From Gammaproteobacteria bacterium (GTDB lineage Bacteria > Pseudomonadota > Gammaproteobacteria > S012-40): 64,000 nucleotides of DNA. Within the stretch, counting starts at the first letter, position 1. The number at the start of each line of letters is the position of its first letter. The notes below the pieces were generated by a model, which searched no databases, had not been told where the DNA came from, and saw only the letters and a list, made by a program, of their open reading frames with translations. A program made the position numbers and the translations under genes. Below, in pieces: positions 17,854 to 24,800 of the stretch. The DNA is taken from assembly GCA_029883265.1 (NCBI GenBank), contig JAOUJM010000001.1, forward strand, positions 10,511-74,510, written 5' to 3'.

Positions 17854-18732
17854 GATATTGGTTTGCTGGATTCAAGAGCTCCTTTACTGATTTTGGCAAC
17901 TCGTATTGGGTACCATATCCAGGCATATCAAAAGCAGGTGCAGCTGGGCCAATGCGTGTATCCGGAATTTCTTGGAGAACGCGATACACATTCAAGTTAC
18001 TCACATCTGTGCCGGGACGAAGGGATAATGTTTCTGGAGTTGTTCCTAAGGGGCTTGCGAATGTACCGCGTTCATTCCCGAGACGGCCTATTAGCTGTCC
18101 AGGTTGCAATGAGCCAATCTCATCAGCACCATAAACAAAACCTTTATTCTTCGGCCAATCCCAGAACACATTTTCTGCACCATACTTGCTGGTCAAATAT
18201 TCATTCCATTGAGCGCCTGAAACTGCTCCAGTCTTGTTTGGAACACGATCACCGCCTTTATATTTTAATATACCGCCAGCAATAAAACCATATGTTAAAC
18301 CACCCAATAGCTCTGGATTCTCCCTGTTCTGCCACAAGTTCCTCAGACTTTGGACCTTTCTATCTGAAAATTCGGTACTAGTAGGAAAACCCAGCTTATC
18401 TAACTTAAAGAAACTATTAAAATTTAAAGAGAGGTCATTAAACTCTTCCCAGATATTTTTTCCTATATCTAGCAAAACCTCTAAAGTCTCATTTGTCAAT
18501 CTGTCACCAAGATCTTTATGAGCATTTAGGGTTCCTTTACTGAATCTCAATGCGTAATCACCCACATCTCCGTTTTGTTTCTGCTGGTTACTCCGGCCCA
18601 AAACAACCCCATTAATCTGATCAAGTTGCTGCATTGCCTCTTCTAAATTTTGTTGACTCTCAGAAACCTCTCCAACCCCCTCCTCCTTACTATGTCCCGC
18701 CAACGTCAATGGTAAATCCACTTCCTGGCCAT
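17834..18732 (-). CDS. Displaced native 3' end of the giant YD-repeat gene, cut off by transposon 2. It has about 190 aa of pre-toxin region, then RVPNK at 18233-18247, then toxin A (ART/TNT-like fold candidate).
   Basis: The frame across the 8-bp duplicated target continues the giant ORF in frame (GYGQ|EVDLPLTLAGHS...). Residues 1-28 of the track ORF (MPAPVGNLHSSRLTDLKLTGKVRSLGRLH) are IRL-encoded. Confidence 0.7.
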
Positions 18733-18816
18733 GTAAGCGTCCTAAACTCCGCACCTTCCCAGTCAGTTTAAGATCCGTTAGCCTGCTGCTGTGTAAATTA
18801 CCAACAGGAGCAGGCA

Positions 18817-19173
18817 ATGAACGATCTCACTCAACCGTCCATCAAAAACATTCGCACGGATAAACGCAGCAAAGGCCCTGAGTATTGGCAGGCGCATATG
18901 GATGCGTTAAAGCAAAGTGGTATGACTAAAACCGGTTATTGCATGCATCACGGACTTTCTACGGCGACGTTTTTTAAGTGGGAGAAGAAACTGGCCAAGG
19001 CCTCGGCTTTGTTTGTTCCGGCTAAGTTGGAGACAGTGCCGGTGTATCCAGCCTCATCCAATGATCTGATTCGCATTGATCTGCCCAATGGTTGTGTGAT
19101 TTCCTTGCCAGTGTCGTGTTCACCTACTGAGGGTTTACGTTGGATCGAGACCTTGATGCGTGCTTCATGCTGA
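18817..19173 (+). CDS. tnpA: IS66-family TnpA
   Basis: About 85% amino-acid identity to the copy at 6931. Confidence 0.7.
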   Translation: MNDLTQPSIKNIRTDKRSKGPEYWQAHMDALKQSGMTKTGYCMHHGLSTATFFKWEKKLAKASALFVPAKLETVPVYPASSNDLIRIDLPNGCVISLPVSCSPTEGLRWIETLMRASC

Positions 19174-19523
19174 AGCTAGATCGTGAGATTCAGATTTACT
19201 TTGCGATTAATCCGATCAATATGTTAAAAAGCTTTGATGGGTTATCCGCTTTAGTGGTGGATGTGATCGAACAAAACCCCCTATCGGGGCATTTGTTTGT
19301 GTTTCGTAATCGAGCCACTGATAAGATTAAATTGCTGATCTGGGATCGCAATGGTTTTACCATTTATTACAAAAGACTCGAACGTGGTCGCTTTAAGTTT
19401 CCTGAGCTAGATGACTGCACCCACTTGTCTATCACCCGCCAAGAGTTGGATTTGTTATTTGACGGGATTGATTTTACTAAGCTCAAACGATTACCCGCAC
19501 TGCATTACACATCCGTGACTTGA
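19140..19523 (+). CDS. tnpB: IS66-family TnpB (likely true start near 19161)
   Basis: Paralogue of 7278-7634. Confidence 0.75.
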   Translation: MDRDLDACFMLKLDREIQIYFAINPINMLKSFDGLSALVVDVIEQNPLSGHLFVFRNRATDKIKLLIWDRNGFTIYYKRLERGRFKFPELDDCTHLSITRQELDLLFDGIDFTKLKRLPALHYTSVT

Positions 19524-21094: not shown

Positions 21095-21823
21095 TCATTT
21101 ACGAGGTTCAGGTATCTCCACACCTCGCTGCTTTAACGCGGCTAAGAGTTTTTCATACCAAATCTGTTGACTGTCGGGAACATTTACCATTACAGCAATT
21201 TGTGCCAATCTCTCTAATTCTACAGTAGTGCCCTTTTCTAAATAAAAAAGCCCTTTATCATAACGTCCCCAGACGGCAACAACGTGATCGGCTATAGTTC
21301 CGCCTTGGTTGTCAACACCATTTAAATCGGCACCATTATCCAGTAAAAAATCAATGCGTTTCCAATTGCGTCCATTAGCTATGCGTTGTAATAATGGCAT
21401 ACCATTCCAGCAAGTGATGTTGGGGTCACCGCCATGGCGTAACAATATTTTTAGATAGTCGATGTCGTCGGCTTGTGCAGCAAGTTCCATAGCTGAAAAT
21501 TCAATATCGGTTTTGTAATTCGGATTCGCACCTAGCTGTAATAGTTTTTCCAAACCTTTTTTGGCTTTCGCAGCAATCAGCCACATTAAGGGTGAGAGGC
21601 CTTCGGATCCGACCGCATTCACATTGGCACCTGCTTTTACTAATCGATCGACTTCGGCAAAATCCTCGTCAATGGCGGCATAGATCAATTGTGAATCCAA
21701 CGGCTTTGAAAACGATTGTTTCGCGGTTAAGCCACCCAGTTTTAATTCACCACAGGCGCTACACATGAAACTCATGCCGAATAAAAGAAATAAGTATTTT
21801 CGGAGTTTTATATTTTGAATCAT
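21095..21823 (-). CDS. Ankyrin-repeat protein with N-terminal signal/lipoprotein-like peptide; candidate immunity protein for the lipase tip (transposon cargo)
   Basis: Three to four ankyrin-like repeats (..DIEFSAMELAAQADDIDYLKILLRHGGDPN..). It lies 24 nt downstream of the giant ORF stop. Confidence 0.6.
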   Translation of the reverse strand: MIQNIKLRKYLFLLFGMSFMCSACGELKLGGLTAKQSFSKPLDSQLIYAAIDEDFAEVDRLVKAGANVNAVGSEGLSPLMWLIAAKAKKGLEKLLQLGANPNYKTDIEFSAMELAAQADDIDYLKILLRHGGDPNITCWNGMPLLQRIANGRNWKRIDFLLDNGADLNGVDNQGGTIADHVVAVWGRYDKGLFYLEKGTTVELERLAQIAVMVNVPDSQQIWYEKLLAALKQRGVEIPEPRK

Positions 21824-21846
21824 GCTTCACCTTAATTGCAGATCAA

Positions 21847-24800
21847 TTATTTAAACGCGTTGATAAAATATTGCATATCGTGCAAATCCACAGGGTCCAA
21901 ATAACTTTGCCATGGCAAGGGCTGTTTCGCTTCATTTACGGCCGGTACGGCAATACGAGTGCCTGCGGCTTCTGGCATTTGTCCGGGGCCAAAACGATGC
22001 CAGCCAATGTCCCTACCATAAGATACATCATTAAGTGCCATAACAGCCGCGAGTAAATTTTTTGGGACTGTACCCCATTGGTTGAGGACGGAGTCCACCA
22101 CTGGACTAGCCTGGAGTGTGCTCAATATTTCACCCGGCGTATAGAATGCGTAAACATTTTTCTTTAAGTGATTCCGATCCATTCCATAGCGCTCAATTGT
22201 ACCATCACTGAGTCCTGCCGCGTTAAAGGTAACCGCACTGGATTTCAACCTGCCAGCTTGTGCCGAAGCAATGCCGCCACCGAGGGAGTGACCGGTAAAG
22301 GTTAGTGGTGATGAGCCTAACGCTATTTGAAGATCAATTGCAAGATTGATCCCAAATTCATATTGGGTCGAATTGAAATCGGATCCTTGAGCAATACTTG
22401 CTACTGCATCTTTAACCGCTTCATGCCGGCCCAATTTCGTATCCGTTCCTCGATTGGCGAATATAAATTCGCTTGTGCGATAATTAAAATAGAGTGCGCC
22501 TTGGTAGCCACTCTTCTTATCTACAAAATTTTCAGGTTTCATATCCAGGACATCAATAAAATCCCTACCCATGCGGTAAATATCCTCAGTGACTTTCTTT
22601 GGTTCCTTTCCGGTGTATTCTTGATAAACATCGTCAGATACCATAGCGTTTTCATACCAATCAAGGCTTCCACTAAAGTCCAGTCTGATTGGAGCGGCAC
22701 TAGCAAGCTGCGAGTTATATAGCGTTCCGTTTTCATCAACTAGCTGTCCGTTCTTGAATGTGAGTATCGGTTTGGTTTCAACGGCATCGGATGATTGTCT
22801 ATAAGGAATTTTGCCTGGGGCAGAGTTTTGGACGCTTACCTGGCCATACCCATTATACGTTTTACCGCCATTACGAATAAGATTGCGACCTGGCTGGATT
22901 CCCCCAAATAGCGGCAACTCACCCAAAGCAGATTTCCAAGCATCCTCACCAGACACGCCTTTGCGAATAGACTTGGTGTAGTGTTTCTTAATCGCCTGTC
23001 TTTGTCGGTGGTCGTTTATTTTCAACTCATCAAGTTTGTTATCAAACTTTTTGGTCGACTGCTCAGCACTAATATATCCCGACGCAGCACTACTTAGTGC
23101 CTCAACAGCAACCGTCCGCCAGTCCGGCCGGTAGTCTTTCAGAGTCATGGAGTTAACGGCTATGCGGCCAACTCCAGTTAACGCACCACGTATCGCATCG
23201 CCTGCAACACCCGCGAAACCCCATCCATCAACTTTCCCAACGTTGCTTGGTAATGAAGATGTGACTCCACCCACTAATGCGCCAACCGCTACATTCGCGA
23301 ACAGATTTCCTGCTTGGCTATTGTATTTTTTACGCTGCTCAGTTGACTCCATGGCCATCGATAAGCCAGTCGATATAAGTGCTCGTCCCGCACCTTGTAG
23401 TGCACCCTTAACAACCCCTCCTCCTGTCTGATTCAATCCAGGTATTTGTGATATGATCGCGGCGATTGTCATTGATTTAACAATTTCTTCCTCGTCAATT
23501 TCATCGATGTAACCAACATTCTTCATGTATTTCTGTATGGCATACGAGGTCATTCCGGCAGCAATAATCGCCCCTTGCGGACCAAACACTATAAAAGCAG
23601 CAATAGATATGACAACAGAAGCAACATTCATCCAAAATATTTCAGACTTCGAGGGTTGATTCCTTGCAGGCATGCTTGGGTCCGTACTTCCAATTATCTC
23701 TCCCGGACTATAAGGTTTGAAGGTATCGGCATTGTTATGAATGTTTGTGACAACATTCGGAATGATTATGGATATTCCAGGTGTTAAATCAATATTGGTG
23801 ATATTGTTTGCGTTTGCAATCACATACCAAAGACTAGCATCTCCCCATACTTTACCTGCAATCGTTTCCAAAGTGTCACCTTGCACAACGAGGTATTCAC
23901 TGGCTGTATTCGCAGGATAGTTAGCACTAATGGCTTGATAATTTTGATCAAAGTCTGCTGAAATAACTCGATTCTTCCCTCTTTTTTCGTTATCTGCAAT
24001 CTCCTTGTTTGATAGTCGCGACTGGGCAAGTATTTGTGTATAGTCGGTTTCACCGGCACCTCGGTTGGATACTTCACCAATACCCCGTCCATTAAGATAG
24101 AAATAGCGGTTTACATCGTAATTTGTATTATCGATTTCATTACGCATAATGATTCGGCCGTCGGCATCAACCGTAAACTCAACTCGGCGCTCATATTTGG
24201 TGCCATGTAGTGGTGAGTTGGAATCATCCATTCTCATCAAGTGTCCATTTTGGTCATAATAAAGGTGAGAATACCCGTCAACAAAACCACGTGAATTTAC
24301 ATCCGACCTACCAACACTCTTTTTTGCAGAATCCCAATAGCTATAGAAATAGGAATTCCTGAAATTCTTTTGTTCCTCAATGCTCTTTACTTGATATGAG
24401 ACATTCTTTTCAGCTAGATCTAAACGATCTATTTCACGATAGGTGTAATCGTTATGAATTGTTGACTGCTCTTGCAAATATAGAAATTGATCCTCAGAAT
24501 TTTCCACTCTTTTACGATACTCAATACGAGAGATACGACTATCCAGATCATAGCTATAGTCGTATTGTTGTACAGACTGGGGTGGAATTGTGGTAACAAC
24601 AGTTTCTATATCTGGGTCATATAAATGAGAGGAGCTCGTTCGACCTAGCGCATCTAGCAAGCGCCGAGACACTAAATTTTTGTCTTCAACATTATCGACT
24701 ATTTTTCCGTGTTCAACAGTTTCTAAAATACCATTTTTTGTATATCCATATCGTTCGATCATAGTCGTATTCGCGCGAATATAGTTAACGCCAATTCGCT

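Follow-up and report, generated by a model that had tools for sequence, protein, structure and literature searches.

In a 64,000 nt stretch of contig JAOUJM010000001.1 from an uncultured gammaproteobacterium (hereafter the window; all coordinates are positions within it, and L-numbers denote related contigs), we identified an insertion sequence (IS) of the IS66 family that carries a predicted lipase toxin module and an ankyrin-repeat immunity gene, and that lies within a giant YD/RHS-repeat gene. We consider it probable that this is a transporter IS66 (tIS66) element with a toxin/immunity cargo, which inserted in frame and thereby replaced the toxin tip of the host gene. The element entered as one unit, by DDE transposition into a gene of 6350 codons with duplication of 8 bp of target. 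As read from the sequence, this insertion occurred in the frame of the toxin, such that the gene now encodes the scaffold, a linker specified by the right inverted repeat (IRR) and the lipase, followed by the ankyrin gene, which has a ribosome-binding site to itself. Beyond the left inverted repeat (IRL), the former TNT tip has been left stranded and intact, together with its candidate immunity gene, as an orphan cassette. Furthermore, the lineage has lost the IRR that overlaps the end of tnpC in canonical relatives, and a distal, IRL-like IRR of 23 bp abuts a toxin module devoid of a start codon.

Termini and target duplication

The element spans 18733–22839 (4107 bp), with an IRL at 18733–18755 on the plus strand (GTAAGCGTCCTAAACTCCGCACC) and an IRR at 22817–22839 on the minus strand (reverse complement, GTAAGCGTCCAAAACTCTGCCCC), the latter being translated in frame as VSVQNSAP within the giant open reading frame (ORF). 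The two repeats match at 20 of 23 positions and show the length (∼20–30 bp) and GTAAGCG start of IS66 termini; for comparison, the inverted repeat (IR) of ISPsko1 is GTAAGCGTCCGGCGAACTCACCTT. A repeat search returned this pair as the longest inverted repeat of the region (30 nt at 87 %, including a palindromic-looking flank), and a degenerate IR pattern with ≤3 mismatches found five sites in the window compared with none in 100 shuffles. Approximately 60 nt of subterminal sequence behind the IRL is common to the IRLs of this element (copy 1), of a second copy in the window (copy 2, described below) and of contig L009. Within the unit, the order is IRL, tnpA, tnpB, tnpC, ankyrin immunity gene, lipase module and IRR, and no IR-like sequence was found in the interval from the tnpC stop (21044) to the IRR when 7–8 mismatches of 23 were allowed.

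Target duplications of 8 bp are a property of the IS66 family (ISfinder), and here the sequence ctggccat stands immediately outside both termini, at 18725–18732 and 22840–22847, with 8/8 positions identical; the chance of such identity at a fixed position is 1 in 65,536. The same flanks were recovered in the independent contig L021. Re-alignment thus left intact what the first-pass annotation of this DNA had proposed for the ends of the element: an IRL at 18733 with a 20/23 partner at 22839–22817, identical 8 bp flanks, a spacer between the tnpC stop and the ankyrin gene that is free of any IR (it holds a decayed vestige only), and a right end at 22839.

These termini also bear on the view that no single transposition took place, and that an ordinary IS66 lies beside an unrelated solo IRR, or IS copies have recombined, with the two 8-mers matching by chance or through homologous exchange. 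Rearrangement at the ends of such elements does occur, as copy 2 and an element in contig L004 are without duplications, and a stretch of perfect identity between the two tnpC copies suggests gene conversion between them. Nevertheless, the duplication is exact and sits precisely at the termini, and excision in silico restores a stop-free ORF of 6350 codons in which the old tip continues from the duplicated codons; as such, we regard this explanation as very improbable.

Recovery of the arrangement in other assemblies

The structure was reassembled at 99.98–100 % identity in four other samples, represented by contigs L019 (ENA ERZ27296342), L020 (JGI 3300022223), L021 (ENA ERZ27296366) and L022 (Logan SRR7132771). 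The last of these begins exactly at the IRR terminus, whilst L021, at 4361 bp, contains the whole element, both junctions and both copies of the duplication. The arrangement is therefore not an assembly artefact. A mis-join at repeated IS sequence might have been suspected from the fact that contigs of other assemblies break within the stretch of tnpC where copies 1 and 2 are near-identical, and from the second flank seen beside the lipase–IRR end in contig L008. Such a chimera is scarcely credible, however, given that five assemblies made with different pipelines (JGI, ENA MEGAHIT, Logan and NCBI metagenome-assembled genomes) agree at this level of identity, that a single contig spans the element from flank to flank, and that the 23 bp of shared IRR is shorter than typical assembly k-mers.

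The distribution of this lineage is narrow. TnpC and the IR were absent from 185,579 species-representative genomes, and in a metagenome scan an IR of this type was found only in samples of the same project. Contigs L002 and L004, discussed below, belong to the same NCBI metagenome-assembled genome as the window. IR matches in L012 and L013 were set aside as lying at an unrelated locus and probably due to chance.

Transposase genes and loss of the proximal IRR

Judged by profile matches, the backbone comprises a complete IS66 gene set, in agreement with the family assignment made from the sequence at first reading. All three genes lie on the plus strand. tnpA (18817–19173) encodes an IS66 accessory protein of 118 aa (NCBIfam NF047593, E = 4.2e-17, above cut-off), and its stop is overlapped by the start of tnpB in the sequence ATGCTGA at 19167–19173; tnpB (19167–19523) likewise encodes 118 aa (PF05717 TnpB_IS66, E = 2.8e-33). 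tnpC (19554–21044) specifies a full-length DDE transposase of 496 aa with matches to PF13007, PF13005, PF03050 and PF13817, such that the leucine-zipper, zinc-finger, DDE and C-terminal domains are all present over their full lengths (for PF03050, E = 5e-85 across profile positions 1–283 of 284). Every feature of IS66 and tIS66 elements that was looked for was found in copy 1, including a passenger inside the IRs and downstream of tnpC, here a cargo of 1.8 kb that separates the tnpC stop from the IRR. It also behaves as a single unit, in that the duplication flanks the whole 4107 bp, and the cargo end is found with a second flank in L008 and L022.

In the canonical relatives L015 (49 % identity) and L003 (61 %) the IRR overlaps the tnpC stop (...CGGACGCTAAC). 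At this position copies 1 and 2 retain decayed vestiges only, which in copy 1 correspond to the spacer between tnpC and the cargo (21045–21094), as determined by alignment with L015 and L003. The two ends also resemble each other more closely in the element with the distal IRR, where IRR and IRL agree at 20 of 23 positions compared with 14 of 23 in L015. Contigs L003, L015 and L016 had been considered as further carriers of cargo and were rejected, with L003 and L015 having the canonical IRR at the tnpC stop. Separately, L016/L017 hold at 495–6480 a distant IS66 relative (TnpC 47 % identical) at the end of a YD-shell toxin locus, in which genes for YD proteins of 1350 and 293 aa are followed by a small RraB-like ORF; the toxin genes are oriented toward the IRL, and downstream a further IS66 is nested.

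The lipase and ankyrin cargo

Both cargo genes lie on the minus strand, opposite to the tnp genes. The immunity gene (21095–21823) encodes an ankyrin-repeat protein of 242 aa with matches to Ank_2, Ank and Ank_4 and to ankyrin proteins in the PDB; it has its own Shine–Dalgarno sequence (AAGGTGA), and the product begins with a hydrophobic, signal-like N-terminus ending ...FMCSAC, in which a lipobox was judged by eye only. The toxin tip (21847–22816), now the C-terminus of the giant ORF, is a Tle-like lipase module of 330 codons with an alpha/beta-hydrolase fold and the motif GHSLGG. Residues 144–259 match chain B of PDB 7UBZ, described as a T6SS (type VI secretion system) lipase effector (E = 5e-11), with additional weak matches to the Lipase_3 and thioesterase profiles, and remote homologues carry PF26363 and are in some cases annotated as RHS repeat-associated. 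Thus, a GxSxG motif and similarity to a solved effector occur together beside an ankyrin gene, which supports the reading of the cargo as a Tle/Tli-type pair of predicted lipase toxin and ankyrin immunity protein. The cargo had been called a lipase/ankyrin toxin–immunity pair from the sequence alone, and the 7UBZ match, the Ank profiles and the ankyrin immunity protein of the solved relative all agree with that call. Homology to the best homologue (P0121) begins at cargo residue 14, a few codons past the IRR, whilst the first Met of the module is residue 66, inside the conserved domain; as no start codon precedes that domain, the lipase could be made only as a fusion.

Fusion to the YD/RHS scaffold and the displaced tip

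The giant ORF (21847–41001, minus strand; 6384 aa) contains no stop where it crosses the IRR. At the DNA-encoded junction the fusion reads ...KTYNGYGQ VSVQNSAPGKIPY..., and the peptide joining scaffold and lipase is ...YNGYGQVSVQNSAPGK.... The part contributed by the host gene (22848–41001, minus strand) is a YD/RHS scaffold with DUF6531, RHS repeats (RHS_repeat matches with E = 2.7e-68 and 5.6e-47), LysM and a glycine-rich, hydrophobic pre-toxin module; a TEN_YD-shell assignment, precomputed for the same giant product, likewise identifies the repeat array. We found 2051 homologues for the LysM and glycine-rich pre-toxin module, many of them in proteins of 4000–7000 aa. Since this homology stops at residues 270–330 of the 352 that precede the junction, the insertion lies 20–80 codons into the variable C-terminal region. 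The tip is preceded by this module in place of the PxxxxDPxGL motif, which was not found near the C-terminus (DPxG[LI] occurs only at residues 2657 and 3331). One homologue (P0206) had hinted that YNGYGQ might be a module-end motif at the insertion point, an idea that was rejected as, among 150 pre-toxin homologues, the sequence occurs almost only inside ordinary YD repeats.

Deletion of 18733–22847 in silico yields a single ORF of 6350 codons (...KTYNGYGQEVDLPLTLAGHS...) that ends in the TNT tip, with ...AACGGGTATGGCCAGGAAGTGGAT... as the predicted sequence of the empty site. The first-pass annotation had suggested a single continuous ORF after such a deletion, together with uninterrupted reading through the IRR and displacement of the native tip to the left of the IRL, and each of these was recovered. 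The displaced tip (tip A; 17834–18732, minus strand) runs on precisely from the duplicated codons, beginning with a linker of ∼200 aa and continuing as a TNT NAD+ glycohydrolase (PF14021, E = 2e-20, residues 208–295), in keeping with the NCBI name of this ORF, 'TNT domain-containing protein'. Directly downstream on the same strand, a candidate immunity gene of 97 aa (17560–17853) has a weak match to Imm59 (E = 6e-4, below cut-off). The GC content at third codon positions is 0.40 for the cargo and 0.37 for the native tip vs 0.50 for the scaffold, as would be expected for tips that have been swapped in. We also considered tip A as the second half of a split lipase, owing to the GHS within LTLAGHSKEEG; this was rejected given the identity of tip A as a TNT toxin, the GHS being a chance match.

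A second copy with different cargo

A further IS66 element with a toxin/immunity pair between tnpC and the IRR, of the kind for which a search of other genomes had been proposed as a check, occurs within the window itself. Copy 2 (6847–10500, plus strand; 3654 bp) is of the same IS66 lineage and carries a different cargo. Its IRL (6847–6869) is the same as in copy 1 but for one position, and is followed by tnpA (6931–7290), tnpB (7278–7634) and tnpC (7665–9185). On the minus strand there follow an immunity-like ORF of 184 aa with a signal-like N-terminus (9194–9748) and a toxin ORF (9745–10477) that runs open across the IRR, in the frame also used by copy 1 (VSVQNSAPRKNNP...). The IRR itself (10478–10500) is identical to that of copy 1 at 23/23 positions. 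From the IRL to just short of the end of tnpC the two backbones are 87 % identical, and past tnpC they share nothing until the final ∼37 bp at the IRR. Within tnpC, 188 nt are perfectly identical (19923–20110 and 8034–8221), which is the stretch that points to gene conversion.

The IRL of copy 2 cuts an open, toxin-like frame of 267 codons (6041–6846), and its IRR lies 5 nt past the stop of a 220 aa ORF. This IRR junction was reproduced in three other assemblies (L023–L025), and in the Logan sample of L022 a contig runs across it unbroken. In the toxin ORF of copy 2, an SLT-like motif (QES...GLFQMEP) was recognised by eye. Pfam, NCBIfam and PDB gave no match for this toxin, for tip C or for the toxin of contig L002 (below), and an AlphaFold model of the copy 2 toxin made without an alignment was unusable, with a predicted local distance difference test (pLDDT) score of 35. 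The designation of all three as putative toxins is drawn from motifs read by eye and from gene arrangement. A further trace of the lineage is an IRL remnant of ∼60 bp (41926–41985, minus strand) with no transposase genes following, which lies ∼960 bp upstream of the start of the giant gene and truncates a small ORF (41878–42183) with a helix–turn–helix-like end.

A third cargo and a junction shared between cargoes

In L002 and L004, an IRR copy with 22/23 positions conserved abuts the end of a type I-F CRISPR array and is accompanied by a third cargo, specifying a 290 aa protein with an HNH-like motif (EVDHIFP, by eye) and a second protein, of 239 aa, that matches SUKH weakly. In this cargo the toxin ORF shares the frame of the IRR, but one stop interrupts it. 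The transposase genes beside this cargo are of another IS66 type, with a TnpC 66 % identical, a divergent IRL and an IRR-like sequence of its own. We had initially taken the locus for a relative of 66 % identity carrying a 3.3 kb cargo, an interpretation rejected on the basis of that second IR-like sequence (L002 3761–3783) and the divergent IRL. It is instead read, from its sequence arrangement, as what remains of a window-type right end, with another IS abutting it. In L004 (5395–6105 and 6076–6098), the divergent IS66 has its IRL (GTATACGTCCGGACAACTGCATC) directly against a truncated hsdM-like methylase gene and is not flanked by a duplication, whilst its tnpC stop is overlapped by a gene for an S26 peptidase; two IS66 types seem to be patched together here, beside CRISPR-Cas I-F.

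Contig L008, from the same sample as L004, begins with 99 nt that are 100 % identical to window positions 22741–22839, comprising the end of the lipase and the IRR. Past the IRR it continues into the CRISPR-side flank and not into the YD gene (lipase–IRR|GAGCTGCG). The same junction of IRR and flank (IRR|GAGCTGCGAAAATATTCAAAAGC followed by a type I-F CRISPR repeat) is present in L008 (1–182), L004 (11658–11873) and L002 (5494–5600), such that one CRISPR-side site is joined to two cargoes, the lipase in L008 and the HNH-like protein in L002/L004, with the first one or two spacers differing. This second flank, together with the break of L022 exactly at the IRR, suggests that, within the community, the lipase end is joined to more than one flank. 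The L008 junction may have arisen by insertion directed at an IR end already present, with subsequent recombination, by exchange at the IRR, or by rearrangement between loci. All three cargoes are in one frame relative to the IRR.

Proposed toxin-tip replacement and its alternatives

If the lipase tip was indeed grafted onto the scaffold by transposition, the host promoter and delivery scaffold would deploy the transposon's lipase, the ankyrin immunity gene would be co-transcribed with the scaffold–lipase fusion, and the retained old immunity gene might protect against kin that still carry the old tip. The outcome would be replacement of a toxin tip by transposition. As to the origin of such an element, an IS end may have become placed in frame at a toxin module's N-terminal boundary, possibly when an in-frame deletion took out the body of an IS that had inserted at this point. 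This boundary end, together with a downstream IS copy without its own IRR, would then constitute a mobile unit, and such units would now circulate with different cargoes. An origin of this kind would explain why the IRR resembles an IRL and is placed at the boundary of the module, why the frame is shared, and why a start codon is missing.

A number of observations weigh against tip replacement. An in-frame landing is expected one time in three, and the IRR is free of stops in two frames out of three (0 and +2, with +1 containing a TAA), so that frame alone is weak evidence; similarly, three cargoes would share a frame by chance in ∼1 of 9 cases. Copy 2 is not flanked by a target duplication (cagtgata vs tggaacta) and is unfused, with a stop six codons outside and upstream of its IRR, and the toxin of L002 begins at a start codon of its own, with a stop beyond the IRR. 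Public assemblies yielded no empty site, protein search included, and all of the evidence derives from a single uncultured population of Gammaproteobacteria, represented by a few related samples. With regard to function, no T6SS, PAAR or VgrG genes lie within the 64 kb window, and the lack of a DPxGL cleavage motif near the tip bears on processing and delivery across a foreign linker.

Several of these points, namely the frame expectation, the unfused copy 2 and the self-contained L002 toxin, along with promoter and terminator scans that were at chance level and uninformative, would equally be anticipated if a genuine transposition had merely disrupted the gene by accident, with coincidental read-through and a chimera that is not a working toxin. 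The toxin ORFs would then enter the IRR because the right end had been captured from an earlier toxin gene. We consider such an accident unlikely. For a random hit in a 19 kb gene, the combination of a site just past the pre-toxin module, orientation and frame has a probability of ∼0.5–1 %, as estimated from coordinates. In addition, the lipase needs a fusion, yet its 330-codon ORF and the immunity gene are intact; five assemblies, from different samples, share one fixed allele at 100 % identity; and three cargoes stand in one IRR frame.

Returning to tip replacement, it may be extended to a more general proposition, that this IS66 sub-lineage is a dedicated shuttle for toxin tips, with the 23 bp right end acting as a frame-fixed, translatable adaptor (VSVQNSAP) before start-less modules. 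We put this forward tentatively, as a possibility that is somewhat improbable at present. Under such a scheme, any polymorphic toxin gene with a resident delivery scaffold could receive weapon and antidote together by transposition into its 3′ region, and, because all cargoes share one frame at the IRR, exchange at the IRR by transposase or short homology could swap cargoes with the frame kept. The junction that joins one flank to two cargoes in L008 and L002/L004 could be a trace of such exchange.

Relation to known systems

The accepted route of tip exchange in polymorphic toxins is homologous recombination at conserved motifs at the end of the core. Poole et al. in 2011 and Koskiniemi et al. 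in 2014 reportedly described tip displacement in Rhs and CdiA loci by such recombination, with orphan cassettes. As in those loci, the new pair here is predicted to become the expressed tip, and the old tip and immunity gene remain downstream as orphans. Unlike in those loci, the junction is formed by a transposon IR and an 8 bp duplication and not by VENN or PxxxxDPxGL, the new tip is physically linked to a transposase, and there is no DNA homology between orphans and the main gene (none was detected by self-BLAST).

Insertion sequences within toxin loci are themselves familiar, as H-rpt (ISAs1-family) elements sit inside E. coli Rhs loci. Transposases, IS66 included, are also enriched near PT-TG toxins, where carriage of toxins was judged unlikely (Pandoomain preprint 10.1101/2025.10.01.679605). 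The element described here resembles these in being an IS embedded downstream of Rhs tips, whereas those are neighbours or disruptors without toxin cargo.

Cargo-carrying IS66 elements have been documented as tIS66, with ISPa75 (carrying fosZ), ISPsp18, ISPa120, ISPa128 and ISPsy43 as examples (PMC12888890). Our element shares with them the order tnpA–tnpB–tnpC, passengers between the DDE transposase gene and the IRR, IRs of the GTAAGCG type, target duplications, and a right end that resembles the IRLs of other IS66 elements in place of a canonical IRR (PMC12888890). Their passengers, however, are complete genes with their own promoters (e.g. for resistance), whereas here a start-less toxin module, open through the IRR and accompanied by its immunity gene, lies in frame in a polymorphic toxin gene. 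The first-pass annotation had supposed the mechanism to be undescribed, which holds only in part: IS66 cargo carriage is not new, but for a toxin tip as cargo, for an IRR that can be translated and for in-frame fusion to a polymorphic toxin gene we found no precedent in the literature, nor any report of a transposon that delivers a toxin tip in frame.

With respect to the cargo, the Tle/Tli system of Enterobacter cloacae pairs a T6SS lipase effector with an ankyrin-repeat lipoprotein as immunity protein (PDB 7UBZ; bioRxiv 10.1101/2023.03.28.534661), and lipases of the Tle family also occur as C-terminal domains of Rhs and CdiA proteins beside ankyrin genes (bioRxiv 10.1101/2023.03.28.534661). 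The similarities extend to an alpha/beta-hydrolase with GxSxG and an adjoining ankyrin protein with a signal-like N-terminus; the differences are that the present pair is transposon cargo, that the lipase is joined to a YD scaffold via an IR-encoded linker, and that T6SS genes are missing from the window. In Burkholderia thailandensis, a mobile element encoding contact-dependent inhibition (CDI) moves a whole cdi locus (PMC6350997). That case is comparable in that a polymorphic toxin system is moved by a transposon-like element, and differs in that only a tip and immunity pair is carried here, grafted onto a resident scaffold.

If tip replacement by transposition is borne out, it would constitute a second, homology-independent route for the exchange of weapons between unrelated scaffolds and species, and would explain the enrichment of transposases around polymorphic toxin loci. 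It would also widen the role of transporter ISs from whole genes to protein modules, with a terminal IR that is at once a transposase substrate and a coding linker.

Genomic context

Past tip A, ∼25 small ORFs on the same strand, mostly without family match, extend over 1.3–17.8 kb of the window, and this downstream region is a typical orphan array. Its members include an LHH (HNH/EndoVII) nuclease tip (12987–13433) and an ORF with a nucleotidyltransferase domain (12024–12419). Taken together, the locus shows the succession of toxin, immunity gene and downstream orphans in the form of lipase/ankyrin, TNT/Imm59-like (weak), the LHH orphan and the small ORFs. At the far end of the orphans, within the array of small minus-strand ORFs, a 149 bp direct repeat (957–1105 and 1548–1696) is 97 % identical.

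Directly upstream of the locus, at 47101–63964, there is a flagellar cluster (FliP, FliN-like, FlgE/F/G-like, FliI, FliH, FliF, FlgI, FlgA and a sigma factor). A 450 bp direct repeat (41065–41514 and 46980–47429; 98.9 % identical) corresponds to the 3′ part of a TPR gene, which is present in full at 47101–48189 and as a truncated copy at 41186–41545. The repeats bracket a 5.5 kb segment, containing a DUF6973 protein (44815–46089) and two unknown proteins, that has the appearance of an inserted or duplicated segment ahead of the giant gene.

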